Assembly: GCA_036172245.1 (NCBI GenBank)
Contig: JAYWIR010000028.1
Location: 1,736,001-1,800,000, forward strand
Length of the DNA: 64,000 bases
Direction of reading: 5' to 3'
Source of the DNA: Raillietiella orientalis
Taxonomy: Eukaryota
In this document: in pieces, positions 8,883 through 62,019 of the stretch
Layout of the letters: every line of letters starts with the position of its first letter
How positions within the stretch are numbered: the first letter of the stretch is position 1
Program-made: the position numbers and the translations under genes
Notes under the pieces: model-generated
Seen by the model: only the letters and a program-made list of their open reading frames with translations
Database searches by the model: none
Told to the model about the DNA's origin: nothing

Positions 8883-9621
8883 AGTTTTCTTTTTTTTGGT
8901 TCCCTAAGTGTGCCTCAAGAGCCGGTCGCGTGCCTCGCGGAGCATGTGACCCTTTGAAACAGTTTTGTTTCCACGCCACTCCGCCTGCGGGGTGGCGTGG
9001 AAATTCTTCAGGATAGGGGGCAACCCGGGATGGGGGTCCGCCCTATGAATCCAGGAAGGGCTCGGAGTCCGTTCCTCTAACGCTTGGGAAGGGATTCCCC
9101 CCCGGATGGGGGAGATCGCACCTCCCAGCCTGGTTGTCTCCGAAGGGGAGCCCCGAAGGTAACCTCCTTCCTCATTCTCTCCGGAGGGTCCCCCGGGAGG
9201 GGGTGGTCCTCTCCATTTCATCTTCTCCGGAGGGAACCCGCAAGGGAACCGCTCCTGTTCACTCCTCTGAAGAGAACCCCTAAGGAACGCTTCCGAAACT
9301 CCGTAAAGAGGCGACGACTCGGAGGGTCCCCTCGGTGAGGAGGGTCCGCTCTCCGTTGTACGACCTGAAGGGGAACTCCCCACTCCTTGATTCCTGGAAG
9401 GACCCGAAGGTCGACTCCCATTGTTCCGGCCTTCATCGGGGGCCTCTGGGGCTTTATCCACCGCCGATGCCGCGCCCGAATGTCTCGGCCAACCAGCGCC
9501 ATTGCAGGACAAACTCGGAACCCAACGACGCAGTGGCGTCAGAGTTTCTGCCGGAGTATTCGAACCCGCGTCGCATGGTACCCCACGCGGAAGCCTTAAC
9601 CACAAGGCCTCCGACGCGGGT
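8883..9621 (-). mobile_element. tRNA-derived SINE, full-length copy (about 740 bp)
   Basis: Head GGCCTTGTGGTTAAGGC (A-box/D-arm-like) and GGTTCGAATAC (B-box-like, 9566-9556), with an A-rich tail. 12-bp TSD TTAGCAATTTCG (8871-8882) / TTAGCCATTTCG (9622-9633). Removing it restores the host Utopia reading frame. Confidence 0.85.
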
Positions 9622-13689: not shown

Positions 13690-14960
<1,271 letters not shown>

Positions 14961-14964
14961 AGAC

Positions 14965-15545
14965 ACTCCGCGTTGGCGGAGACCGTGTGGCTGCGGTCTC
15001 TGCGTGTGACGCCAACCGTTGCGGGTTCAAATCCCTACGTGGGGGGTCGACGCCGAGAAATGAGTGAGTCATGGGTTTCGAGCCTCTCCTGAAAAACTAC
15101 GCTGGTTGGTCTTATAGGCTTCGGGTGTGACAGCACTGGTGGAAGCCTGATGTTCTCGTTGACTGCTCGGGATTGGAAGTTGACCTCCCAAGGTCCTTCC
15201 AGGAATCGAGGAGCCGGTTCCTTCCGCTTGTGCAAAGGAGATGTTTTCCCCTCGCTCCAGTGTGGACCCTTAATCTCGTGCCACGGGGCTGGTGGATTGA
15301 TGGTGCCTCCCCAGAGTGCAAGAAGCGTGCTGCCCCCTTAGGGGAGTGCCCTCCAGAGAAAATTTGAAAGCTTCCCTTCGGGGTCCTCTTCAGAGGAGGA
15401 AACCAGAAGCGGATCCTTTCCGGGTTTCCTTCGGAGAAGAAACGATTAGTGGGCTCCCTCAGGAGGGGTCCTCTCGCAGAGAATGCTTGGCAAACCCGAA
15501 AAAAAGGAAAAAAAAAAAGCCAGAAGGGAAAAGCGAAGCAGAAAA
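14965..15545 (+). mobile_element. tRNA-derived SINE copy
   Basis: B-box GGTTCAAATCC at 15024-15034. Body motif GTTGACCTCCCAAGGTCCTTCCAGGAATCGAGGAG is shared with other copies. A-rich tail. Inserted right after the protease YTR codons. Confidence 0.8.
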
Positions 15546-16849: not shown

Positions 16850-17505
16850 TTTTCTGCTTCGCTTTTTCCTTCCAGCTTTTTCATTTTTTTTTTCGGGTTT
16901 TCTCTTTTTCTTTTTGGTTCTCTGAGTGACTCAGGAACCGTCGTGTGAATCGCCCACGCCACATGAGGGTGTGTGCAACTCTTCAATTAGGGGGTGTTCC
17001 GGGTGGGGACCACCCTATGAGTCCAGGACGGCTCCAGTGCTCTTACACCTGGCATGGAACCTCCAAGGAAACTTCCTCATTCTCTCCGGAGGAACCCCTC
17101 GGAGGGGGACCCCTGCTGCAATTTGTTCTCCGAAGGAAACCCTCAAAGGAACCGCACCTTGTTTCCTCCTCCTCTGAAACTTCGAAGCGACACTTCCTGA
17201 TTTCTCTGAAGAGCGCTCGCCAAAGGGAGCAGCACGTTCTTGCACTAGAGAGAGGCATCAACCAGCTCCATGGCACACGGTGGAGGTTCCCCGTCCGAGG
17301 AAAGGGGAACGGTTCCATTTGCACAACCGGAGGGGAACCGCGAAGGACTTTTTGATTCCCAGAAGGATTTCGGAGGGTCAACTTCAATCCCGGAGACCAG
17401 ACAACGGGGACATCTGGCTTCCGCCAGTGCCGCATGCAAATGTAGGCCAGCCAGCGTCATCTTGCGGGGGAGACTCGAAGCCCACAACGCAACCATTTCT
17501 CTAGA
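16850..17505 (-). mobile_element. SINE copy lacking the tRNA head
   Basis: Body and tail (GGAAAAAGCGAAGCAGAAAA) are similar to the 14965 and 8883 copies. Confidence 0.75.
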
Positions 17506-18709: not shown

Positions 18710-20314
18710 CTATCTTGGTTGGTGCCTTCGCCTGCGGGGCAGCAGTCAGAGCGGTGCAGACTGTTGCCTCAGACCCACACGCTGCTGTTGCGCGCCGCAG
18801 CCCTCTCCTCCTGCACACGGGAACAGGAAGTAGCCCAGTGCAGCTCCACGTCGCCAAAGCGGCCAGCGTCTCCACGGCCAAGGCGGCAGGTTCCGGATCT
18901 GCCTGAAGGACTTGATGGCGCCGCTCCAGGACGCTGATTTGGGTATCCTGATCATTGATAAGATCGGATTGCAGATGTAGTTCCGGCTTCTCTCCCCGTG
19001 TGGGGAATTGTGGTCTTTTCGTTGGTGTACTCTGGTACGCCACATCCTCCGGCGATGCGCTGGAAGCTCAAAGCTGCTTCGCTACTGCTGCGCAAACTAC
19101 GTTGAAGGGCTGGCTTTGGCTATCCCCTGAGGCATCTGTCCTTAATACTGGTGGCCTACGCGTGGATCTCCCGTCACCCCTAAAACTGGAACGCCTGGCA
19201 GCAGGAGGCTGAGTCCTGGGTTGCCTCTTTGGAAGTGCGCCCAGAGGAACTGCGAACGCTGCAGAATCTCTTACGCAAACAGCTGGGAGATCTACAGAAT
19301 TGGACTGAGCGACTTCCACAAAGTAGGGAACGGAGGGAATATGGAACGTTTCTTAGTCTTTAAAAGCAGCTGTGGATGTTGGCCATCTTTCTGGAGACTT
19401 CTGGCAGATGGAGCCACCTTGCTGCATTCCTCATGAGGACTGCTGGCATGCTGGTGGCCTCTCTTTGCCGAGAACCTGACTCCAACACCTAGCAGGCTGT
19501 CACTATGTCACAAATGCAACAGATTGCACAGCACCCTTCTTCAGTCTGCCTCCGTTGAAGAAGCAAATCTGTGTCCTGCGGTTGTCGGAGCGCCAAAGCG
19601 AGTCTCCGCCTCAAGTCCTCCAGGGCACTGCAGCTCAGCAAAAGGCGCGGGAGCGATTTCCAGTTAGCCGCCACACTCCCGGTCGCAGCACTGCCTGAAC
19701 TCGGGGCAAAAAATGACAGCAGCCAATCGGCGGGGCGGAAGTTCTGCAAAATGGCAGGAGTAGAAAAACCTCTGGACGGCTGCAAGACGAGCGAGTTAGT
19801 GAACGCTGCTCCTCCTCGTTTCCAAGCAAAGGGACTCCTTCGGAGGAATGACCTGCTTGACGTGCCACCCGCAGAACTCGTGGTCTCTTCCCTGTCTGAG
19901 GACACCTCCGTGTTCCTTCCTCGTTGGAAACAGGATCTTGTGCTGTTTCTTCACTGGAGATTCCAGTGCTGTCGGCGCAGACACCTGGTTTGCGGGGGAG
20001 TTGCTTCCCCGAACTGTTCCAGGTGCGGGGCGACGAAATCGCTCCTGCACCTTTTGCTGGCTGCAGTGCCCTGGAGGACTCTAAAGAGTAAGGAACCAAA
20101 GACCTCTGTCCACACCCTCTCGTCTTTTTTATTTCTTTATTGTCCCCTCCCTCCGTTCCCTACTTTTTGGAAATCGGCCTGCGTGCCGGTGGTTAACCCG
20201 AATGAACTTTTTGGCACTCCTTGTTTTTGAGGGATTCTTCCCCCCTCTGACTTGTAGTTTGTTTGTTTGTTCTCTCTTTCAAAATAAACGTCCCGGCGTA
20301 ACCGGGTTAGAACC
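18710..20314 (+). mobile_element. Tx1-like 3' fragment, head-to-tail with the previous copy
   Basis: KGLLRRNDLLDVPPAELVV..LHWRFQC..NCSRCGATKSLLHLL, then AATAAA and a hairpin at 20292-20306. The 5' limit is uncertain. Confidence 0.75.
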
Positions 20315-25838: not shown

Positions 25839-26245
25839 GCCCGGGTTGGAGGCCGTGTGGCAGTGACCTCCGCGTGTGAAGCCAAGCGTTGCGGGTTCCA
25901 ATCCCTACGTGGAGGGTTGACGCCTCAGAAACGGGGAGCGTCGTCTTCCTCTCAAGACGACTCTGGTTGGCCTGTAGGCTTCAGGTGCTGCACTAATGGA
26001 AGCCAGATGTCCCTCTTGACTGGACGGGATTGGAATTTGACCCTCCAGGGTCTTTCCGGAAATCAAGGAGCTGGTTCCCTTCGGGGTTCCCCTCCGGTTG
26101 TGCAAAGGAGACGTCCCCATCCTCCAGGGAGGATCCTCTATCTCCGGATGCTTCTCCAGAGCGTAAGAGGCACTCTGCTCCCTTCGAGAAGCCTTCCTTC
26201 GGAGAAGTTCCTCCTAGGCTGGGAACTCGATTCCTCCTCTTTTCT
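25839..26245 (+). mobile_element. SINE copy, 3'-truncated
   Basis: Head GGAGGCCGTGTGG..GGTTCCAATCC (25894-25904) and shared body. Confidence 0.8.
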
Positions 26246-27084: not shown

Positions 27085-27680
27085 TTCTGTTTCCGCTGTT
27101 TTCCTTTTACAGTTTTTTTTCTTTTTTACAGTTTTTTTTGGGGGAGGGGATTCGCTGAGTACCTCAAGAACCGTCATTTTCCTGGCGGATCAAGAAGCTC
27201 TTCAAGAATCGCCCACGCCACCCAAGGGTGTGTGTGGTAACTCTTTAAGTTAGGGAGTACCCGATGAGGAATCCAGAAAGGCGCTGGAAAAAGGAGTCCG
27301 TTTCTCCCTCGCCTAAGAGGGATCCCCAAAAGAGCCCATTCGTCGTGTCTTCTCCCGAGGGAACCCTCAAGAGAGTCCCTCCTTGTTTCCTACTCCCCTA
27401 AAGAGAATCCCGAAGGGACGCTTCCGAATTTCTCTGAAGGGCACTTCTTGAGATGCAAACCCCCGAGGAGGGTATCAGCCATCTCCATAGTACGCGATGG
27501 AGGGTCCCTTCCAAGGGCAGAAAGAGTCCTATTTTCACAACCGGAAGCAAGTCCCAAAGGAAACCAGCTTCTTGGTTCCTGGAAGGACATCGGGGGGTCA
27601 ACCTACAATCTCAACCAGCCAACAAGGGCATCAGGGGGGTTTCCGGCTTCCACCAGCGCCGCACCCGAAGCCTCACGGAC
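27085..27680 (-). mobile_element. SINE copy lacking the head
   Basis: Shared body (CCTTCCAGGAACCAAGAAGCTGGTTTCC), 3' CCACGCCAC hairpin and A-rich tail. Confidence 0.75.
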
Positions 27681-27764: not shown

Positions 27765-30170
27765 GCATGGCACCACCACCAAGGAAGACCGGGAAAAGAT
27801 GCTCACATTTCCCCCAGAGGCTATAGAGGTGGGGGCGACCGCGCAACAGAATCGTTCCTCGCTCCAGCGAGAGCCTGGAATGCCGTGGCTGCGGCCCCCG
27901 TCGCTGGCGATCATGGTTGAACAGAAGACCTACCTTGAGGAGAACTGCAACCCAATCCTCCTCTACAAGGTGAGCAATCCCTGCAGTCTGGAGAGCGCGC
28001 ACACCTTCTCGAAGGCGATGTACGCTCACGGCAAGCAAGAGAAGCTTCTTGCGATGATCATCCGCTGAGGTGGTTTGCAAAGGGGCAAGCCTAGCTCAGC
28101 GCTTACTGCGCACCCCCGTTGCGATGAGAAGCAGAAGGCTCCTCCCGATAACGTAGGACCACTCGGTAGTGGTCCACCTTCTAGGAATCATCTACTCTTC
28201 TAGGAATCGCTACAGATGACCAAAGAGGCCGTCCGCAGTGAACTATCCAAACACGGAAAGGTCCACGCGCTGTGGGCAAAACCCTCTCCATCCGTGGAGC
28301 ATAGCGGACTTTCAGGGGGCCTCGCGGATCACCATACGCGAGGGCTGTGGGTTGCCCCACAAAATACAGGTAGCCGGGGAACAGGGGGACCTGTGGTACA
28401 TGGGGAAACTTGTGTACTGAGGCCATTGCGAGTGCTCGGGACACCTGAAAAAGAGGTGCCCGGGTGTACATTGGGCAATGTGGCAGCACGGGACACACCA
28501 GTAGGTGTGGCCATAAAGTACCGGCCGCGTCGCGTCTGCCAAAAGTAGAAAAAAGCGCGCGACCAGAAAATTAAAGAAACTGGCATCGGCGAAAGCCGCC
28601 ACACCTACCACCACGCCCCAGAGGAAGACCGCCTCGGAAACTCCGGCGAAAAATGCTGGAGCCACCGGGGAAAGCTGCCAGGAGCCTGGATGGCTGGTGG
28701 TAAAATCCAAAAAACAAAAGCAGGAGAAGAAAGAAAATAAGATGGCGAGGAGCAACGGGAATCCGCTGAGTACCGAAAAAAACAAACAGCTGCCGTGTGG
28801 TTGTTTCTTACCCAGTTGCGCCGGGACGTTTATTCGAAAATGAACCATCTGGGAACAAAGTCCCCGGGCAAAGGGACGAGCAGTTCAAGGGGAGGGCTCC
28901 CCGACACGCAGGTCGGGCATACTGAAAGTCCGGAATGGAAGGAAGGGAACAATAAATAAATACGAAAAGATATGGGAGGGTAGGTGACAGGGGTCTTTGG
29001 CTTCGGACGTTCCTTCTTTCCAGAACCGGCGCTGAATGCCGGAGATCTCCTTACTGGCTTCTTCGCTGATGTGAGGCCATCTGGAAGCCATCCTTATGTT
29101 GGAGACTGCAGTCCTAATGATCTCTGTTGGGGCTCTCGCGACTCCAATATGTGGTAGGCCATGACGATGGAGCGGATGCAACAGTTCGTTGCGATGACCA
29201 CACCTAGTGAGAGGCTGCCGCGCGTGAAGAACCGCCACATCACGTTGATGGCGGTGTAACTCTGGTGCAGGAGCACTGAAGGCAGCCTCTGCCACCCTCC
29301 TCGGAGGGCTCTGAGTCGAAGAGCAGGTGCGGGGAGCAATTCCACTGCTTCGCAACTTGCACAGTCCGGGAACGCAACTCCTCCGGAAACTGGGTTCGCG
29401 CGCTGATTGCAATGGAAGTTCCAACGCACTAGCAGAAGCGCGTCCTGTTTCCTCCGAAGGGGGAACACAGACGTGTCCACAAACGAGGAGGGGGCCACAA
29501 GTTTTTCGGGAGGGCCGTGCGGTCTTAGAACGCGTTCCCGAGATCGACCAGCGCGGCGCTGACAAACTCGTCGTTGCCACGCCACCCCCCGAGAAAGTTA
29601 GCGAGGAAGGGGAGCGAGGCGGAGGCGTCCGTCAGAAACGACATCGCTTTCGAGCGGGTGGCGGAAGAGTTCGCTGCCGCGACCCTCCAAGAGCGCGAAA
29701 AAGGCCCTGAGGCACCCGGTCTCTACGAAGGAGTCGGAGATCTCGAACTCCGAAGCGGAAGCCGGAAAAGCAACTTCCACCGCGGCTGCACCTAGCCTGA
29801 AGTCCGGACGAAAGTCCAAGACCCGGCAGAAGCGCATCGCCCCAGTCGAGGGGGAAGAGATCGCCTCCGGAAGCAAAGATGCGATGGGCGTGAGAACTCG
29901 GGGCTCGCGGCCCGAGAGAGTACCACGCTCCGAAGCGGAAGGGATGGAGGACGTGGAGGTCGTCCTGCGCCTCAGGTGTCCACCGTCGTCCCCGAAAGCA
30001 TCACGCTCGCTCAGGTAGCGGGTGCCGACACGTCACTTTCCCAGCACTGAGGACGGGAATCGCCTCTCGCCACCGTCTGAGGATTGCTTGCTGGAACGTC
30101 AACGGGCTACGCGACGACGGCAAGAGGCGTGATGTAGCCGCCACCCTACGGTGCTTCGACCTTGTCCATG
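27765..30170 (+). mobile_element. Tx1-like 5' half: ORF1 (gag-like, CCHC knuckle) and start of APE endonuclease, interrupted by an antisense copy
   Basis: EENCNPILLYKV..SELSKHGKVHAL..LPHKIQV..LWYMG..GHCECSGHLKKRCP, and LRIACWNVNGLRDDGKRR near 30078. Homologous to 58590-60520. Confidence 0.85.
28805..29570 (-). mobile_element. Tx1-like 3' fragment nested antisense in ORF1 of a related copy
   Basis: RWNFHCNQRANPVSGGVAFPDCASC..SRWPHISEEASKEISGIQRRFWK, then AATAAA and a hairpin at 28825-28811. Confidence 0.85.
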
Positions 30171-46084: not shown

Positions 46085-46566
46085 CAGGAAGAGCACGCTA
46101 GTGTGGTGCATCCTTACTTTTTCTTCTTCTTTCCCGGAGGACACCCGCAAGCAGCTCCTTGCTGCTACTCTGAAGGGAACCCCAAAGGGACACCTCCGAA
46201 TTTTCCCTGGAGAGCACTTCCCTAAGGGAGCAGCGCACTTCTTCACGCTCTGGAGAGGTATCATCAATCCACCAGCTCCATAGTACGAGATGAAAGGTCT
46301 TTCCCCCTCCGAGGAGTGGGGCTGCTCCACTTTGACAACCATAGGGGAACCCCGAAAGACCACATGCTTGATTTCTGGGAGGACCCCGGAGGGTCAACTT
46401 CCAATCTTTGCCGGTGGAAGGAGGCATCCGACTTGCACTGGCACAGCAGCCAAAGCCTACAGACCAGCCAGCCATCTTGCGGGGAGAACTCGAGACCCAT
46501 GACGCACCCCCCACTTCTCAGCGTCGATCATCCGCGTAGGGATTCGAACCCGCAACGGCGCAACGC
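46085..46566 (-). mobile_element. SINE copy
   Basis: Perfect B-box GGTTCGAATCC (46550-46540) and shared body. Confidence 0.8.
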
Positions 46567-47023
46567 CTGGTACCCTCTAGGCGGAGCCGAGGGACTCAGA
46601 CGCAAAGTACCTCGACGGTGCTTTCGCAAGGAAGGACAGGACTTTCCGCTATCCAAGTCCAGAGAAACCGTTCGAAGGAGGGACCGTGGTGGCCTCGCGC
46701 CGTTGTCCGGAGCCGATGACCTCCGTGCACGGAGGGAGTCGCGAGCGTGAAAAAAAGTTATCCCCGATCAGCGAGACCGTCGTTCCTGCTTGGTACTTCC
46801 CCCTCCGCTATGGGCAACGGTTTTCCGCCCCTTCCCTTGGGTTCAAGCGAGACTCGGCGCGGCAGTTTCGGGAAGATGCTGAGCGAATATGGAAACTGCT
46901 GGATCCAAGGAGGTCCAAATCTCCCGTCGACGAGACGTTGACCGCAGCCATGTTCCGGAGCGGAGGTGGTGCGCGCTTCTTCGGCGCAGACAGCAGCGAG
47001 TGCCTCTGCACGAAATGAGGATG

Positions 47024-47650
47024 GCACTGCGTTGACGGCCGTGTGGCTTCCGTGTTCTCCCACGTGGGGCGCAAGCGTTGAGGGTTCGAATCTCCACGTG
47101 GATTGTCGACGCCCCAGAAATGGGGAGCGTTGTGGGTCTCAGCAAGGTCTCAAATCCCCCAGCAAGATAACGCTGGTTGACCTGCAGGCTTCGGGTGTGG
47201 CACCAGTGGAAGCCGGATGCCTTCGTTGAATGGCCGGGATTGAAATTTGGCTCTCCGGGGTCCTCCCAGGAGTCAAGGAGGCGGTTCCCTTGGGAACTCC
47301 CCTCCAGTGGTGAAAATGAGATCGCCCTCCATCGCGTGTCATGGAGCTGGTTGATACCCTCCCCGGGGGTTTGCCTCTCCAGAGTGCAAGCGCGCTACTC
47401 CCTCCGGGGAGCCGTCCTTCAGAGAAATTGGGGAAGCGTTTCTTCGGGGTTCACTTCGGAGGAATAAAAAACAAGGAGTGGTAGGGGGACCTTGCGGGCC
47501 CTTGCGGGCTCCCTCCGGAGATGAAATCCCACGAGCGGATCCTTTCCAGTTTCCCATCGGAGAAGAAACGAGTAGTGGCCTCCACCATGACACGAGAATG
47601 AGGAAGAGATTACCTTCGGGAACAACCAGGGTGAAGGGTTTCCTTCGGGG
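47024..47650 (+). mobile_element. SINE copy
   Basis: GGCCGTGTGG..GGTTCGAATC (47083-47092) and shared body. Confidence 0.8.
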
Positions 47651-49283
47651 TCCCTACCAAACGTGAGAGGAACAAACTCCTTCCTCCGGAGCCTTCCGGA
47701 ACTCAGGGGGTGATCCCTAGCTCGAAGAGTGACTACACGCATCCTCGGATGACGTGAACAGCGTTAAAGAGCTCCGTGAACTCCTAGAGGAACGGATCTT
47801 GACTAATTAGACAGAGCCGCCCCCCTCCTTCAAAAAAATACGGGACCGTCCGTCTTCTCTTGAGCGTTCGCTCTGCCTTTCGCCCCCGACCCGTGGATTC
47901 CTCCCCTCCATCACTACTCCACCCCGATGCGAGATGGCGCGTCTCTCCGTGCCTGTTCTTCCACTTTGCCGGGCAGGCAGGAGCCTCGGATCAGCAAAGT
48001 CCACCAGAAGGAAGCCCACAACCTTATGACCCCCTTCCCTCCCTCCTCTGTCCCCCTTCCTTCCGCGAGCGCATTTCCTCTGCTGCTGCTGCCGCAAACC
48101 CGTCTCGCCTACTCACCTTCCCTCGCACGCACCCTCGATGTACAACAGGAACGAGAAGAACCGGTCTGCAGCCCGCTCCCGGCGAATTCCAGAGCACTGG
48201 TGCGCGGTGTGAAGAACGAGACCGGCTCGTATCCTGGTCCCGGACCCGATTCAAGACTGGAGCAGGCGAGCCGCATACGCGCCTTGTAAATTCCTGTCAA
48301 AATCTCTTGCGCAGGTCTAGAGTGGCAGCAGGGAAGAGACGAACGGGACTTCGCGCCCCGTTGCTCGCCTCCGTGGGAACGCACGGGGTGCTCCTGCAGG
48401 ATCCACTGCGGCGCACGCGCTGCCCGCCTCCCTCTCCCGCCACAGCAGATGCGGCCATCGCTCCTTCCGGAGACGACTGTCTGCCGAGAGAGGGAGCGGA
48501 CATCCGCGCGAGCTGCCCACGGGAGAGGCAGGCTCCTCCGGAACTGCTGGAGCGTTCCCTTTTCGTGAGCCAATGGGGCCTCCGAGCATCCCGGGTACCA
48601 AAGATCGCGAGGATGCCCTCTCTCTCGTCACCTCCGAGAGGGAGGTCATCCACAGGATCGCATCGGGGACCGAACGGGTGCACGTGGATCCACAGTTCCC
48701 GCGCCACTTGTGAAGAGTCCTGCAGTCGGTGCTCCGTGGAAAGAAAGAAAGAGAAAGGGCGGAGCCCGAGGAGCCGTTTCCAGGTGCAGTCGGCCATTCC
48801 CAGGTGCGGTGGTGTAACCGATCACTTCGGGATGGGTATGGGTTGCCTTTGGGGGGCAGCCGGTCGGGGTTTCTCCTAGCGGATGCAAGGAGCTTACAGG
48901 AAATCGTCGTCTTTCCTCGATTACTGCTGACTCGTCTTAAGCTCACAGTGGTTCCTCCCTCTCCCGACAAGTCACCTGGAAGGCGGGCGCTTCCTTCATT
49001 TCTCGCGAACCTGGACTGTGCGGGGGAAACTCCTCGCAGCCATCGCGATCTCGTGAACCCATCAAGCGATCCCGCCCAAGCCCAAGCAATTGGGAAAGCG
49101 GGAGCCGACAGCAAAACAGCAGCAGGCGGGTGAACTCTCCCGTCTTCGCGGATTCCCACAGGGATTCGACTTTTTCACTTCCCTATGCGTCTTGGAGCCA
49201 TCCGAACCTTCCAGAGATGACAGGGGGACCTCAAAGGACCCGAGAAGAGAAGATCCACGCGAGGATTTTTCTCATCGCATTCG

Positions 49284-49368
49284 ATTCGTGTACTAATTCA
49301 TGTATTCATTTCCTGTGCTTAATTCGTGTATTTAATTCCTGTATTATTCGTGTATTCAATTCGTGTAT
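49284..49368. repeat. Degenerate 12-13 bp tandem repeat (AATTCGTGTATT-like), about 7 copies
   Basis: Read directly. It marks the switch from GC-rich flank to AT-rich virus-like sequence. Confidence 0.85.
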
Positions 49369-49919
49369 GATAAATTCAATTTAACTGCATGAAAAATAAT
49401 AAATACAGTTTGCTTGTTCAAAAGATTTGATATTAATTGTTAACAAATGAATACAATATTTTGGATTTGATATAATGAATACATTAAGTATATCAATATG
49501 AAATATGAAATATGAAATGAATCCTGATTCATAGGTACACTGAGTGTTGCAAGCAGCAAAATGTTCTTCGCCATGTACTTCTTGGCATAATTGAAATGAC
49601 CACCAGCAGAAGCTCAACCTGTACGATTGAGGCCCCACCCAATACTTCATTCCCACTAACTTTGCCTGCTGGAAACTACTTTTCAGCTCTGTCACGTTGC
49701 ATCCTTTCAACCAACCCTCGTTGTCTTCTTATCCGTCTGCTCATTGGAACAATAACTACCATAAAAGCTTAGTATAGCCCAAACCCTCCTTCGCACTCGC
49801 ATAATTACGGCACAAAATGGAACAACCATTAGCAACCACTCTCTTCGTAAAGGGCACTTTCCAAGAAATCTTCCTGAAAAACCTCCTATAACATCTGCCG
49901 TAACGACGACCACAAAACC

Positions 49920-51485
49920 ACAAAAGAACTCCTTCGGCGGAGCGAACTGTTGAGTGTGCCCCTCGAAGAACTTGTGGTCCCTCCGTCGTGAGTGAACACC
50001 TTCGTGTTCTTCTTCGACGTGCTTCTTCTGCTGCTGCATTGGGGTTTCCATTGCAATCAGCGCGCACACCTAGTTTCGGAGGGAGCTGCCTCCTTGAACT
50101 GCAGAATCTTCGGAATGGCTCTCACATTTGCTCTTCCAAGGACTGTGGCAGAGGCTGCCTTCAGCGCGTTCCTTCACCAGGGGTACGCCGCCATCGACAT
50201 GATGCGGCTGTTCTTCAAGCGTAGAGACCTCTCTCTCTAGGTGCGGTCATCGCAACGATCAGTTGCATCCGCGCCATCGTCATAGGGCCCACCACGTGTT
50301 GGTGTTGCAAGAGCCAACATGGATTGCAGACGCCAGCATGAGGACGGCTGCCAGGTGGCCACATCTCAACGAAGCAGCAAGGAAGGATCTCGCCAGCATT
50401 CAGCGCCGGTTCTGAAACAGCCTTATTAAACGGCCGGAACGGTTCTACGCAGCCCGACTAAACGTCCTACCAGTCAGGGCTGGGCCCAGAATGAAACCAG
50501 AGGAACGCTCATCTCGGCACTGCCAGACGGAAGACGAAACGTTGTCTCATATATTAAACAGATGCAGAAGGCACTCTCGTGTGTCCATTGAGCGACATTA
50601 CGCGATTCAAGAAATGATTAGCAGACCGTGGCGGATGAGACAAAGTGGACTCTAGTGTCCACTAACCAGAGAACTCCAGGAACGGATTCCCTCTTAAAAC
50701 CAGACCTCGTGATGAAGAAAGGGAACCGGATGATAGTGGTGAACATCTGCTGCCCGTTTGGAGGTGGAAGAGACGCTGTCAGCACAGCTAGGAGGAACAA
50801 ACGGGAAAAGTAAAAGGAAGTAGCTCTCGAGCTAGGCAGAGTGGGGGAAGCAATGCAGGGCGCATGCTCTCAGCGTTGGCTCGCTGGGAGCCTGGGATCC
50901 AGGTAACGAAGAAGTGCTGCGGGATCTTGGAATTCCTAAGAAGCACTCGGAGAAGATGAGTCACCGGATGGTGGCTTCGTGTATCCGGCACTCCAAAGAC
51001 ATTTATGCCGCTTACGTCACACGAGGGACTGACAGTCAGATACAGTCGCAGAACCCCAGCGGTCAGCTCTCGCGAGATAGAGGACAGGAAGCTGTGGAAG
51101 CAACAGGCTGACAGGCGACGAGTGCCCCAGACGGACAGATGAGGAATCCCGGAAGAATGTCAAGAACCCCCTCTGTAACGCGATGTAAAATTATGAATTT
51201 CAAACAATAAAACCGAGGCCAATGGAACAAGCCGGGCACAGCTACAGGAACGGCCGAAGCCAAAGACCCTTGTCTCCACTTTCCACATCTTTTTTTTATT
51301 TTCTATATATAAACATATATATTTGCAGTCCCCTCCCTCCGGTTCCGTAGTTTCACGGTGCCCGACCTGAGTGTCGGACAGCCCTTCCCTTGAACTTCTT
51401 ATCCCTTAGTCTGAGAACCTAGTTCCTAGATGGTTTGTTCATTTTTTTTTTTCTTAAATAAATGCCCCGGCACAACCCATTGATA
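49920..51485 (+). mobile_element. Tx1-like 3' fragment inserted into the viral cap
   Basis: LLRRSELLSVPLEELVVPP..LHWGFHCNQRAHLV, and a 3' UTR ending AATAAATGCCCCGGCACAACCC. 15-bp TSD GACGACCACAAAACC (49905-49919) / GATGACCAGAAAACC (51486-51500). Confidence 0.9.
50421..51243 (+). mobile_element. NeSL/Utopia-like 3' fragment (CCHC plus restriction-like endonuclease) nested in the Tx1-like copy
   Basis: ARLNVLP..RHCQTEDETLSHILNRC..ERH..LKPDLVMKKG..VVNICCPF..NKREK..VGSLGAWDPGNEEVLRDLGI..IRHSKDIY. The host Tx1 sequence resumes after it (short ACAG duplication). Confidence 0.85.
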
Positions 51486-51879
51486 GATGACCAGAAAACC
51501 TTCTACTCAGCACGGGAGCCACCAAACCGCTCTTCTTCTCATTCACTTTCTTTATTGGTAGTCTCCGCTTACGAACAACAACCGCCATACCTCCTACTCT
51601 TCGGAAGGTTGCCTTCCTACCAACCCCTAAAACAGCGTTTCCCAAACTTTTCTATGATGAAACACTTAACAAATCCTGAAATTTTAACAGAATACCTTGG
51701 TTATTTTATAGGGTAGATAGATCTTAATGATAAATAAAATCAAGCAAGTAAATATAAGAGTTGGGAAAACAAAACGAACACCCATTCTCAAATTTTAATT
51801 ATGTAAAACAAAATACATGAAAATAGTAAATTAAACTTGACAGCATTTAAAATACATTAATTTCCATGATTCTTCACGG

Positions 51880-51941
51880 AGCACTTATTGACTTTCCGAG
51901 GAACACTGGTGTTCCGCGGAATATAGTCAAGTACAGGTGCT
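51880..51941. promoter_or_regulatory. Imperfect long hairpin in the cap/rep intergenic region (candidate viral origin stem)
   Basis: AGCAC..TTGACT-TTCCG-A-GGAACAC-TG-GTGTTCC-G-CGGAA..AGTCAA..GTGCT. There is no nonanucleotide at the apex. Confidence 0.5.
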
Positions 51942-52191
51942 ACCCCAAACAAGATCACCACCACTGAAGCCCCCTTCCCGCCAACCTCCCACTAACTGCG
52001 GAATGACATCAACAGCACGTGGTTTCCCAGGCCATTCCTCCCGATATTAGATTTTCTTATCAAGGAAAGGTCGAGGACCATCCGGGTAGCACTATCTACC
52101 AGATGGCCCTCTCCCGGCACTATCTATGCAGCATGCATTCTGGTAGCTTTCCAGTCTTCCTAACTTCACACTGTTACTCTGCTCAGTCAAC

Positions 52192-53184
52192 ATGCCGCAA
52201 GCAGCAGCAAACTCCTGGTGCGTGACATGAAGCATAAAACAGTGACGAAGACCTCCTAAACACAAAACAGTGGTGCCAATTAAGTGCCATCATCTCTAAA
52301 AAACAAAAAAAAAAAAACTGGCAGCAGCAACACAAACACCCCTTCCCTACCTCCAGGAAGGTGGAGGGTAGGGGTGGTTGCCGTCGGTTTTTACACCAGC
52401 CCCCTCAACTACACGGACCACGGACTCTTCCCCAAATGAAGCGATCACCCTTCTCCAGAGCCTACCCAGAAATTAGAAAAGGAAGCCCCATGCAAGTTAT
52501 GATTATAATACCAAACAAGACCCCCAACCCTGGGCATACGGATCACTCGACGATGGCCCTAGAGAAGAATCATTCCCACAAAAAGAAAAGTACGTTTTTC
52601 TCATTAAATCTTCAAATCATTCCCACAGATTCTGAAACTGATAAGATCCTGGAAAAATGAAACATACGTCCTGGAACATCACGCTAAATTTTACGCTTTC
52701 CCAAAAGAATGCTTCCGACTATATCGTGGCTGCGTTCACCCCAATCCAATGCAAGACTCCGTTCAAGGGAATGGAGCCGATGGCACACCAGCACGTACGC
52801 CACCCTCAACACCCTCGCAACAACATCTGGATCAAGGATGAAAGGCAAAAGGCCATTTTTGCTAAATTCTTGTTCCTTCGAAAAGGCGCCATCTACATGC
52901 TGTCTTCTAAAGAAGAAGACGCAGTGCATCTCTACAACAGAGAATCCATCATCATTACTGACCTCACAAGAGACAACCGCGACTGGGTCCAATGAGGGTT
53001 CATAGCAAGTCTCAAGAATGGAATAATATTCGATTTCAAATACCAAGGATACATAAAATACTTCCCCAGACCCCATGTCATCGTCATGGCAAACTGGGAT
53101 CTTCACCTCCACGAAATGTCCAACCCATGAACAACTCATATTATATACTATGGCAAGCGATGCTTAAGTCGAATAATAAAATGA
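52192..53184 (+). pseudogene. rep: Endogenous CRESS-DNA virus Rep (HUH endonuclease plus SF3 helicase), nanovirus/alphasatellite-like
   Basis: Motifs occur in order across frameshifts: MPQAAANSWCVT (motif I, 52216), PYLQ (II, 52345), RAYPEIRKGS, YNTK..PWAYG (III, 52504-52542), HPRNNIWIKDE..FAKFL (damaged Walker A), IIITDLTR (Walker B, 52948), LKNGIIFDFKY and HVIVMAN (motif C, 53077-53094). In-frame stops at 52228, 52993 and 53128. AATAAA at 53175. Confidence 0.92.
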
Positions 53185-53219
53185 AACTTTTTCAAACAGT
53201 AAAAGGGTGATTTGCAGGA

Positions 53220-53253
53220 TTCGGTTTTTATATTACAGTTGATAAAAATTGAA
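53220..53253. promoter_or_regulatory. Hairpin containing TATTAC at the right border of the viral insert
   Basis: TTCGGTTTTTAT-ATTACAGTTG-ATAAAAATTGAA (12-bp stem with two G-T pairs). TATTAC lies at 53231-53236. Confidence 0.35.
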
Positions 53254-54206
53254 TGCTTGCATGTAATTGTGCAAGAAGCTGCTCTGTACCCAACCTAGAA
53301 CTCATGGAATGTCTTAGGTTCTTGGCTGTGAACACTGAAGAAAGAACACTCAAGATAGTCGAGCGCATTCACTTTTCCTTGCTGGCGGTCACCCCAAGCT
53401 CAGCTCTCTTGGAAAATTCACTTTGCATGTATCTTAAATTAGGAATATTTCAGCGCGTCTTAGCCGTGATGGCAGATCAAATCTGGGCAGGCGTGAAAGA
53501 TTGGTCTCCATATGTTACCCTCTTCTCCACAAACCTTCCAGAAGAAAGAAGTTTTCTTCAACTTCCTGTGGACTGCTACATCCTCTACGCAACGCTCCTT
53601 TCGTCCCTGCGAACGTTCGCCCGTCTTACGGACAGCCACCGGAAGTCGGCTCTCGAAACCGACAGCCTCTCAATGAGGGGAAGCATCCAGCGCGGCCAGC
53701 ATGCCGAGTTGAAGAGAGCGAAAGGAAAGCACGGCCAGAAGGACAGGGATGCGTTCCGTCTCCGTGTACCGACTCGTACAGCAATGTCTCCGTGGTCCCG
53801 CTGGTCGAGACGAAAACTGTCCCGGTGCCGTTCGTGGAAGACGTTGTCAGCTAACAATTTTTTCATCAACAGAGAAGGCTATCAACGTCATTTGATTGAT
53901 TTTCCCGCCTTGCGCTTTCCGCTCAGCTAGCTCACTGTGACCCGAGACTCACACGAACGTGCAGTGTGGGTCAAGAAGATAAGGCTTACCAGGTGAGGTC
54001 TGTTGCCACGAAGTGCCCGACGTGCAGCCACAGCTGCACTCTGCCGCTTCCAGACGACCGTGCACTCATTCATCTTGCCGTTGCGAGACATCTGCTCGCA
54101 TGCAAGACACTGGAATGTCTTGGCTAGACAAGTCGACAACACCCTCCTCGTTTTCTCATGTCGCCCCATTCCACGATCAGCGAAAGCCACCCTTCCTGTT
54201 TCCATC

Positions 54207-55300
54207 TCCGCCCGGGTGCGCCGGGACTTTGCTTCTCACAAACTTCTTACAAAAGAAACTGTGCTTGGACCAGTGGACCAATCACTCTCAACTTATAAGA
54301 GACCTGCCGCATCGCCGGTTCGCAGACCGGCGCGGTTTACCGCGTCAGCAGAGGGAAGGGAAAAAAACAAAAATAAAAAACAAAGACACTTTGGGGGCGT
54401 TCGGGAAGAAGTTGCTGTCCGCTGGTCGTAGTCCGGTCCATCCTCTTTAGGATGTCGGCAACGTCTTGCTGGATAGTCCTGTCCGGGTGCGGCCATCCTG
54501 ATGAATTGGACAGCGAAATGGATGGCATCCCTGTAGCTGAATCCTTCCGTTGCTTTGCTCCAAGCGGCGACGATCCCGCATAGGCAGCACAAGACTGCAG
54601 GGGAGACCACTGGCCGAAGGGAGTCGCGAACGAAGGGGCTTTAAAAGCGTCCCTGCAGTTGCCTCCGGGGGCTGCCAGGGCTGCGTTCCGAGAGGAGCCG
54701 GAGGGCAACACAGTCCAGCAACAGGTAGAGGGGAGATTCCCGTATCCCGCAAGCGACACAATTCGGCCCCCGCGTTCAGTGATGGCGGCGGAAACTACAT
54801 GGGAGACCCCGATGCAGCACGAACAGCGCCGACTGCTGCCACTTCAGGAAGAGGGTGAGGCTGTCCATGAGCACCGAGGGCCACTTCAGATGATCCACCG
54901 GAACATCCTGCAGCTCGCCCCAGCGCAGGAGTCCGTGGGGCGGTGTACTCAGGGTCGCAGAGTCGAAGAGCTGGCCCGTCTTCCACGAACCCAATCCTTT
55001 CTTCTTTCCGGAGATGATGATCTTGACTTCCCGTTTCGCCACCATGCTGCCGCTCAGGTGTTCCCTGACAGAGGGCGGCTCTGCAGCCCTCGGAAAGCTC
55101 TTCCTGCCCATCCTTCCTGTTTCGAAGGCGAGGTGAGCCTGCGCAACCTCATTGCGCCTGGGAGGGCGTTTTTGTTTCTGCATGCACGTGTTTCCTCTTT
55201 TGGTGATGCGAGCCTGGGTGCGGACGAACAGGAGGAGGGAAGGGGGCGTGGTTGGCTGCGTACGTCGCTTGCATTTTTCGAACGGCAGCACAGCTCTTGC
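54207..55300 (-). mobile_element. Tx1-like 3' fragment
   Basis: HGLLRWGELQDVPVDHL..PNCVACGIRESPLYLLLDC..FAVQFIRMA, and a terminal hairpin CCCGG-CGCAC-CCGGG at 54225-54211. Confidence 0.85.
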
Positions 55301-60526: not shown

Positions 60527-61601
60527 CGTTTCCCACCCGGGTGCACCGGGGCGTTTATTGCTAAACTATCCGGGAACAGAGTTCCCGGACAAAGGACACT
60601 GAAAAAACGAATGGAGGGATCCCCGACACGCAAGGTCGGTAAACCGAAAGTCCGGAACGGGAGGGAGGGGGCCACAAATACACATATAAAAAATAGAAAT
60701 AAAGATATGGGGAGGGGAGGGGACAGGGGTCTTTGGTTTCGGTCATTCCATTCCTTCAGAACCGGCTGTGGATGCCGGCGATCTCGCTCCTCACGCCCTC
60801 TGGTAGATGGGCCCACTCGGAAACCGACGCCATGTTCTCGTCGGCTATTCCGGTGGCCTGTCGACGAATCGCCAGCTTCTCCAGCTCTCGGTGGGCCGTG
60901 TCGATGCCGCGGGTGCAGCAGACCGTTGCGATGACAGCACCTAAGGACAGGCTGCCTGGCGTGAAGAAGAGGCGCATCAAGTCTCTTGCGGTGTCCCCCT
61001 GGTGCAGGAGAGCCGAGGCCAGCCTCCGCCGCAGTCCTTGGAGGACACCGCAGTCCAGGAGCAGGTGAGGGAGCGTTTCCACTTCCCCGCACCGCTTACA
61101 GTTCGAGGAGGCAACTCCCCCGAAAACACGGTTCGTCCGCTGGTTGGAGTGAAAACCCCAATGCACCAGCATGATGACGTCCTGCATCCACGAAAGGGGG
61201 AACACGGAAGTGTTCAAACAGGAAGGAGGGACCACAAGTTCTTCGGGGGGCACACTCAAGTGTTCACTCCACCGAAGGAGTCCCTTCGAGATGTTGCGAG
61301 GCGTGGCGGCGTCTGCCAGCTCGCTAGTCCTCGAGCCGCCCGTGGGTCGGGTTGCTCCTGAGATGGTGCAGGCGACCTCCCACCTCGCTGGTAGGCACCT
61401 GTCATCACTTGCCCTGAGGGATGACAGCGCATCGGCGAGAGGCGTGACGGCCAGGAGAGTCCACTTCTCCTGGTCATTTAGAACCTGCTCTACCGTGAAG
61501 TACGGAGACAGGTTGACGCAACGGAGTTCCAAAAGGGAAACATTATGTTGCCTTGCCCAGGCACACAAAGGTTCCTGCAGCCAGGCGTCAAAGTTCGTTT
61601 A
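60527..61601 (-). mobile_element. Tx1-like 3' fragment, antisense in APE
   Basis: ORF 60756-61568 with HWGFHSNQR..NCKRCGEVETLPHLLLDC, then AATAAA and a hairpin at 60550-60536. Confidence 0.92.
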
Positions 61602-61611
61602 GGGGATCGTC

Positions 61612-61825
61612 TGTTTGTCACTCGGGTGCACCGGGGCGTTTATTGCTAAGCTATCCGGGAACAGAGTTCCCCGGACAAAGGACACTGAAAAAACGAAGGG
61701 GGGGGATCCCCGACAAGCAAGTCGGTAAACCGAAAGTCCGAAACGGTAGGGAGGGGACCACAAATACACATATAAAAAATAGAAATAAAGATATGGGGAG
61801 GGGAGGGGACAGGGGTCTTTGGTTT
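61612..61825 (-). mobile_element. Tx1-like 3'-UTR-only copy, tandem with the previous one
   Basis: Near-identical to 60527-60740. Hairpin at 61635-61621. Confidence 0.9.
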
Positions 61826-62019
61826 GGGCCGTCGGTATTGGCGATGTGGCTCCCGGAACACCTGTGGGGTCGCGTTCTTCCTGAAGCCAGCCGTCGACGC
61901 TGCCATGAAGGGCGTGCACTTTGATGACGACGGTCGGGTCGGCCAGTTGATCCTCAGGTGGTCCGACTCGATCGACTTGATCGTCACAAACGTGTACGCC
62001 CCCAGCGGCAAGAATTGGT

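Follow-up and report, generated by a model that had tools for sequence, protein, structure and literature searches.

The rep pseudogene

The window considered here is a stretch of 64,000 nucleotides from Raillietiella orientalis (contig JAYWIR010000028.1, forward strand, positions 1,736,001 to 1,800,000), and all coordinates below are counted from its first letter. Between about 49.4 and 53.25 kb it contains an AT-richer island, which carries a disabled gene for the replication protein (Rep) of a virus whose DNA is circular, Rep-encoding and single-stranded (CRESS), as well as a nest of repeats. The Rep of such viruses nicks the viral origin by its N-terminal HUH nuclease and unwinds the DNA by its C-terminal superfamily 3 (SF3) helicase.

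The Rep pseudogene occupies positions 52192-53130 of the plus strand and consists of 312 codons and a stop in a single frame, as seen both by reading in three frames and from the protein matches described below. It starts with an ATG at 52192 and ends with a terminal stop at 53128-53130, so that the coding part (52192-53127) is 936 nt long. There are nine internal in-frame stops, at codons 13, 18, 36, 60, 95, 148, 150, 151 and 268. An earlier note on this locus, made from the letters and open reading frames (ORFs) alone and called here the original prediction, had recommended correcting frameshifts; there are none to correct, as the damage consists of stops only and one plus-strand frame runs through unbroken. 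Translation with X at each stop yields a read-through protein of 312 residues (P0001), in which the strings SWCVT, PYLQ, YNTK..PWAYG, IIITDLTRD, LKNGIIFDFKY and VIVMAN follow each other in this order. A polyadenylation-type signal AATAAA lies at 53175-53180 of the same strand, 45 nt past the Rep stop, where it had been predicted, and is not followed by an A-tail.

A phmmer search of 1.84 billion representative proteins with the read-through produced 857 matches at E<=1e-3, 41 of them at E<=1e-10, with the best at 6.2e-24. Among the 25 top matches that were scanned, 23 carry the Viral_Rep (PF02407) and/or RNA_helicase (PF00910) domains at E<=1e-3, and the ten best matches come from contigs of 1.5-3.9 kb. 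A profile of 299 positions (A1) was built from 40 full-length matches. Aligned by hhalign to residues 202-310 of P0001, it gives a probability of 99.7 and an E-value of 1.2e-26. In the six frames of the window the same profile has a single match, 52471-53124 on the plus strand, covering profile positions 73-281 of 299 (E 8.5e-38). This match delimits the statistically supported part of the Rep, that is, motif III, the linker, and the SF3 helicase with Walker B and motif C. The N-terminus is collinear in a global alignment, three phmmer matches begin at query residues 101-105, and motif III falls at the correct profile position.

The single best phmmer match, P0002 (354 aa, from a 3.9-kb contig whose source label is a Methylococcales metagenome-assembled genome), contains two Rep helicase C-terminal halves in tandem and no nuclease domain. 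Probably this is DNA of CRESS origin that was binned with a bacterium, or else a rearranged copy in its own right.

The motifs have been preserved to different degrees. In the helicase, IIITD (Walker B) and VIVMAN (motif C) align to conserved columns. The Walker A P-loop (GxxGxGK[ST]) is interrupted by a three-residue gap, and of its columns the Lys alone is kept; this gap fits a pseudogene and does not argue against Rep ancestry. In the nuclease, YNTK represents HUH motif III (YxxK) inside the significant profile alignment, with Y105 and K108 in invariant columns. A global MAFFT alignment places SWCVT under motif I (FTLNN-like) and PYLQ under motif II (HxQ). The latter is placed by position, without statistical support, and its first His position is occupied by Tyr. 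The other frames yield no better match to the N-terminal nuclease part. The original prediction had listed all three rolling-circle motifs and the SF3 motifs in order. This holds for motif III, Walker B and motif C, whereas motif I is weak, motif II is positional, and the Walker A loop is gone.

The nuclease part (52192-52470) is the most decayed, with five stops, an A-run at 52298-52317 and, beside the latter, a 16-nt inverted repeat at 52333-52380 (88% complementary, 16 nt between the arms), which spans the aligned place of motif II.

With nine stops, the ATP-binding loop lost and the first nuclease motifs eroded, this Rep, as judged from its reading frame, could neither nick an origin nor unwind DNA. 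One might suppose that the frame is still read, by means of a different genetic code or after co-option by the host, since five of the nine stops are TGA and there is no frameshift over 936 nt. However, even with TGA taken as a residue, four TAA/TAG stops remain, and for this reason an alternative code was rejected. Given also the lost Walker A loop and the eroded N-terminal domain, a functioning frame is improbable in the extreme.

Relatives and classification

The consensus of the 40 uncultured Reps in the profile contains the block FD..R....VNYG.IE..KNG..FS.KY.S..K.F..PHV.VFANF. Patterns derived from this helicase block retrieved 303 relatives from IMG/VR and 77 from metagenomes; 151 related loci, 78 of them from IMG/VR, were kept for counts of ORFs and circles. 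Identical, circular-type ends were observed in 97 of the 151 contigs, with unit lengths of 1.2-3.4 kb. Almost all of these circular-type relatives (96 of 97) have a non-Rep ORF of at least 150 aa. In the IMG/VR set a second ORF of this size is present in 75 of 78 loci; in 52 of them it is encoded on the strand opposite to rep and in 23 on that of rep itself, and many of these second ORFs begin with a strongly basic tail. Hairpins with NAGTATTAC in the loop were found in 59 of the 78 IMG/VR contigs. The Atlas clusters nearest to one of the relatives (P0005) are labelled Cressdnaviricota, at the level of phylum only. As the NAGTATTAC hairpins, the circular-type ends and the cluster labels show, the related sequences are genuine CRESS genomes.

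One unit (L081, 1214 nt) is of alphasatellite-like size and looks Rep-only but for an antisense ORF. Its Rep of 295 aa takes about 885 nt, and so its sole other ORF of at least 150 aa, encoding 187 aa on the minus strand, must largely overlap rep.

The original prediction had treated PWxYG, D..R..KNG..KY and VIVMAN as signatures of Nanoviridae and Alphasatellitidae, in conflict with a rep-cap layout. In these multipartite or satellite viruses rep stands alone on its circle of about 1 kb. The comparison with relatives removes this conflict: the same block is present in the consensus of the 40 uncultured Reps, whose kin, as said, nearly always carry a second ORF. The motifs are thus not specific to these two families and do not imply membership in either of them, and monopartite circles with such a helicase are common. 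When compared with 7lar, a solved full-length Rep that we take to be that of porcine circovirus 2, the relatives' profile matches at positions 4-149 only, that is, in the nuclease and linker; hence the helicase is not of the circovirus type.

The helicase block (FD..R..VNYG..KNG..KY..VIV(F/M)AN) appears to resemble those of nanovirus and alphasatellite Reps. Among known groups, CRESS4 and CRESS5, which sit at the base of Nanoviridae and Alphasatellitidae according to Kazlauskas et al. (2018, PMC5923481), may be comparable. The relatives of the locus studied here are circles with a Rep and a second large ORF, and are only distantly similar to it in sequence. A scan of metagenomes yielded 73 loci with at most 46% identity over 49 residues, and no closer relative among them.

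Upstream region and candidate origin

The spacer between the start of a minus-strand ORF (M at 51588) and the Rep ATG is 603 nt long. The original prediction had mentioned about 600 bp of intergenic sequence with a hairpin. Both are present, the hairpin at 51894-51921 with 13-nt arms that are 92% complementary; however, its 2-nt loop is not origin-like. The exact nonanucleotide NANTATTAC is absent from the island.

When stems enclosing loops of 7-16 nt were searched for, a candidate decayed origin hairpin emerged at 52078-52106 on the Rep strand, 105 nt upstream of the Rep ATG. Its stem (CCATCCGG / CCAGATGG) has seven of eight positions paired, and the 13-nt loop GTAGCACTATCTA contains TAGCACTAT, which differs by three transitions from TAGTATTAC, a nonamer common in the relatives. 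The position is also similar: of the 26 relatives that have the nonamer on the Rep strand, 17 have it within 250 nt upstream of rep. Seven sites as good as the candidate exist on the plus strand of the 64 kb, corresponding to about 0.03 expected in a slot of 250 nt, as calculated post hoc. When folded as DNA, the hairpin is modestly superior to shuffled sequences, with a z-score of -2.0, and 7 of 200 shuffles fold as well.

An exact 10-nt direct repeat GCACTATCTA, resembling iterons, is found at 52089-52098 and 52117-52126 of the same strand. The copies are 28 nt apart and the first one overlaps the loop of the hairpin, although short two-copy repeats often arise by chance.

Repeat nest

Upstream of rep, the island is interrupted by two repeats, one inside the other. 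The outer one, TE-A, is an unclassified inserted host repeat at 49920-51494 on the plus strand. One continuous copy, at 29508-28843, corresponds to its segments 49928/49964-50417 and 51246-51435, and further matches lie at 61281-60615 and 61832-61696 (about 70% identity). With a sensitive search, 19827-19906 is added and the edges of TE-A shift to about 49913 and about 51476. An alignment of four copies extends the 3' end to about 51494; the 5' edge falls within 49897-49925. Thus the other copies in the window are 28843-29508, 60615-61296 and 61696-61832 on the minus strand and 19827-19906 on the plus strand, all about 70-83% identical. The copies share a 3' end with AATAAA and a conserved tail, AATAAA(C/T)G(C/T)CCCGG... 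Neither Pfam nor the PDB gave a match that would assign TE-A to a class, including searches with the long ORFs upstream of two copies.

The inner repeat, TE-B (50415-51242, plus strand), is a 5'-truncated 3' fragment of an R2-like long interspersed nuclear element (LINE) of the type with a restriction-like endonuclease. Its ORF piece has only three matches in the PDB, all of them R2 retrotransposon proteins and all at the junction of zinc knuckle and endonuclease (E 0.18-0.37). ACAG stands at both junctions. The nesting of this predicted R2-like fragment in TE-A is well shown because an uninterrupted TE-A paralogue exists, in which position 29018 abuts 29014.

The original prediction had described host transposable elements nested in the island with target-site duplications. 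The nest does interrupt the island, but the duplications are less certain: the inner one would be the ACAG of at most 4 nt, and the outer one is a candidate. The latter consists of ACCACAAAACC (49909-49919) and ACCAGAAAACC (51490-51500), which agree at 10 of 11 positions and may represent the target-site duplication of TE-A. The first bases overlap the conserved end of TE-A, the left copy is situated in a local 8-nt tandem repeat, and the homology of TE-A may reach 49897.

The repeats and a trypsin exon elsewhere in the window make the surroundings those of an animal chromosome. The window holds several old diverged repeat families, and the claim of a CRESS Rep pseudogene in animal-type DNA is supported, with the trypsin exon and the R2-like piece in the same window. 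In the assembly as given, the viral gene is contiguous with host sequence and disabled, as expected of an endogenous viral element. The composition of the island was also described correctly: its GC content is 0.38-0.46, as against 0.54-0.60 in the flanks. The observed-to-expected ratio of CpG is 0.60-0.68 in all four pieces of the island and 0.83-0.92 in the flanks and the repeat nest. Low-GC stretches are present elsewhere in the window as well.

These surroundings also bear on a possible artefact, in which a free CRESS virus or a contaminant contig would have been misjoined into an animal scaffold. Contamination of sequencing libraries with CRESS DNA is common. On the other hand, a gene with nine stops and a lost ATP loop does not belong to a replicating virus, an intact origin is missing, and the island contains a member of a host repeat family that has four other diverged copies in the window. 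A misassembly is therefore very improbable, if somewhat less so than a frame that is still read.

Origin of the element

In all likelihood, the segment 52192-53130 is a dead, germline-fixed endogenous copy of rep in its whole length, derived from an unclassified virus within Cressdnaviricota. Most likely, the double-stranded replicative form of the virus would have been joined into the chromosome as DNA. Entry at the DNA level is suggested because a short upstream stretch with a decayed origin-like hairpin came along, and because no A-tail follows the AATAAA. The viral copy would then have drifted neutrally. Later, a host repeat would have landed about 700 nt upstream of rep, and after that the R2-like LINE inside this repeat. 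To judge from the sequence, no function of the element is required.

Several points weigh against this reading. Firstly, the protein evidence depends on the kind of search. Pfam gave no relevant family for 14 ORF pieces and the read-through with X, even up to E 10; phmmer of the read-through against the PDB gave no match; and a word-based search with the single Rep sequence gave 228 scored candidates, none of them significant. Secondly, over the first 98 residues a profile of the N-terminal part scores 1.7 bits, all of it from motif I, a value reached by 17 of 1000 shuffles. Thirdly, identity to the nearest relatives does not exceed about 40% over about 100 helicase residues, and the virus is assigned here to unclassified Cressdnaviricota and to no named family. 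Fourthly, the candidate origin combines a nonamer with three mismatches and a 7/8 stem, with the post hoc chance of about 0.03 given above, and the best DNA fold of the region has a longer stem with a 6-nt loop that pairs part of the nonamer. Finally, fixation in the germ line is deduced from the assembly and the nested repeats alone.

The first of these points deserves a comment. The original prediction would have given up the Rep if the reconstructed protein had no hit to PF02407 or PF00910. Such a hit is indeed missing, yet the homology through relatives is strong, and to reject the Rep on that ground would have been wrong. A single-sequence scan of viral contigs with the Rep also gave nothing. 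The methodological lesson may be the more useful one: Pfam missed this Rep completely, whereas it was detected immediately when a very large protein set was searched by plain phmmer.

A rather improbable alternative is a processed retrocopy, that is, a rep mRNA reverse-transcribed and inserted by a host LINE. The AATAAA downstream of the Rep stop would be in place for it, R2-type LINEs occur on the spot, and there is a 15-nt match between the tail of TE-B and the region downstream of Rep. However, that match is at chance level for two-copy families of the repeat finder, the A-tail is missing, and no flanking duplication was found around Rep. Moreover, 105 nt or more of sequence upstream of the ATG, origin-like hairpin included, came along; a transcript of rep would be expected to lack this stretch, if circovirus biology is a guide. 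The hairpin at 52078-52106 is thus a candidate lead favouring entry as DNA over a processed message.

Proposed capsid gene

Under the preferred reading, an endogenous copy of rep integrated as DNA, the remaining 1.1-1.3 kb of AT-rich DNA around rep may be the rest of the viral circle, capsid gene included, but this is unproven. The original prediction went further. It took the whole island (about 49.4-53.25 kb, or about 2.1-2.3 kb without the nest) for a near-complete ambisense genome, with Rep on the plus strand, a decayed capsid gene on the minus strand and the origin between them. The capsid gene would start at 51588 and continue to the left of the nest; the virus, of a lineage otherwise unsampled, would have integrated as DNA and been split later by retroelements. 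Besides the full-length rep, such a fossil would comprise a decayed origin with iteron-like repeats and capsid remnants that have diverged beyond recognition. If true, this would connect the host with a monopartite lineage whose helicase is of the nanovirus type, and provide a minimum age for it. We consider such a genome possible, but doubtful, though distinctly less far-fetched than a retrocopy.

Some of its features are suggestive. The four pieces of the island share the low GC content and low CpG ratio given above, the size fits the circles of the relatives, a second ORF, usually on the opposite strand, is present in nearly all IMG/VR relatives, and the origin-like hairpin stands between the two proposed genes. 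The proposed capsid N-terminus (51501-51588, minus strand), which starts with M at 51588, counts 10 R/K among the first 32 residues, and so basic a start is seen in only 4 of the 368 M-started ORFs of at least 40 aa in the window. The left AT-rich piece (49381-49912), taken for the remainder of the capsid gene, contains a minus-strand ORF of 115 codons (49381-49728), a length reached by 18 of 1000 dinucleotide shuffles.

Other features speak against it. The ORF from 51588 had been predicted as Arg-rich; its basic start is real, but the inserted repeat cuts it after about 30 codons, and its last approximately 13 codons and stop belong to the conserved 3' end of the repeat. The non-repeat DNA available from M 51588 amounts to about 160 codons, whereas the largest second ORFs of the 15 best-matching IMG/VR relatives encode 205-457 aa. 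The lower end of the 115-codon ORF is low-complexity DNA, a tandem repeat of AATATGA (3.4 copies, 49495-49518) at the left edge of the island, and the low GC content is shared, as noted, by other parts of the window.

None of the seven tests revealed homology to capsid proteins, so that a near-complete virus with a divergent capsid gene is not supported. Pfam detected no capsid homology in the proposed pieces. In tblastn with 261 and 409 non-Rep ORFs of the 151 related contigs no capsid was found, the best per-query E-value being 0.004 among 670 queries; with the set of 261 ORFs, the only matches below 0.01 lay antisense within rep. Profiles of capsid clusters gave a best E-value of 0.079 in the first set, and 0.0015 among 63 clusters, the latter with 8 bits for a singleton model and outside the proposed gene. 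A scan of viral contigs with the proposed capsid returned nothing, and a word search of 5.8 billion sequences returned eight candidates, none at E<=10. Finally, a single-sequence AlphaFold (AF2) model had a confidence score (pLDDT) of 36 and was too poor for a fold search. These negatives are weak, because the capsid proteins of Cressdnaviricota diverge fast.

What remains in favour of a capsid gene are weak hints: the basic ORF start, the 115-codon ORF and the shared composition. The last is the only positive link of the left piece to the virus, and on this unproven piece it depends whether TE-A is inside the viral insert or merely beside it. No terminal redundancy was found between the two ends of the island. 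The region of the basic ORF was also considered as a tail of TE-A. This was rejected: beyond 51494 there is only a low-complexity match with a score of 12.5, which 18 of 500 shuffles reach.

Comparison with known elements

Endogenous CRESS Reps in invertebrates, some of them grouping with nanoviruses, have been in print since 2011-2015. Theze et al. reportedly described endogenous CRESS-DNA elements of invertebrate genomes in 2014. The locus studied here is similar to such elements, being a stop-disrupted Rep in an animal chromosome with repeat-rich surroundings and microsatellite-type flanks, whose nearest relatives are uncultured environmental circular viruses. On the left, a host-type tandem repeat (13/24-nt unit, about 3.6-6.8 copies) occupies 49279-49368 at the edge of the island.

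Metegnier et al. (2015, PMC4573495) report 46 circovirus-like elements in crustaceans, including some that cluster with nanoviruses, with uncultured circular viruses and with elements of molluscs, and use microsatellite-rich flanks as a mark of host DNA. The average length given there is 128 aa, whereas the rep described here is full-length, with 312 codons in a single frame. In Rosario et al. (2018, PMC6186406), endogenous CRESS Rep elements are placed across the invertebrate Rep tree. Compared with such elements, this locus adds a possible remnant of the origin upstream and a two-level repeat nest beside the gene.

Paired fossils of Rep and Cap, namely the draupnirvirus and krikovirus elements of saurians, are described in PMC10193959. 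The present locus is like them only if the near-complete genome is real, as more than one gene would then be retained in the native layout; for the second gene of this locus no homology could be detected. In the layout proposed here, which is divergent, the 5' ends face each other. Such a layout would be similar to that of Circoviridae, which are ambisense and whose origin is flanked by the 5' ends of rep and cap, and a TAGTATTAC-type nonamer is common in the relatives. The difference from Circoviridae is in the protein, as the match of the relatives' profile to 7lar is confined to nuclease and linker and the helicase is of another type.

The locus thus joins a known class, and is notable only for a rep in a single frame from end to end, the possible origin remnant and the adjoining nest. 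In its coverage of rep it is unusually complete for its kind. As a fossil, it would testify to past infection of this animal lineage by a virus of the CRESS type; the closest relatives known for this virus are environmental circles that have not been cultured. What is chiefly lacking for viruses of this sort is the assignment to a host, for which a germline copy provides direct evidence.

Other features of the window

On its right side the island is adjoined by an open frame of 225 codons (53253-53930, plus strand) without a Pfam match. Further to the right, 54591-55110 forms a diverged repeat pair with 8182-7655 (67% identity over 542 columns). About 2 kb to the left of the island, 46120-47583 belongs to another old repeat family, whose copies lie in both orientations and are 64-80% identical, the others being 14970-15457, 17151-17494, 25845-26209, 27348-27673 and 9216-9297.

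The trypsin exon mentioned above corresponds to an open frame at 14346-14876 of the plus strand, which matches positions 66-134 of the Trypsin profile (PF00089) with an E-value of 8.9e-10. It resembles an exon of a serine protease and is the sole Pfam match among the 124 ORFs of at least 120 aa in the window.

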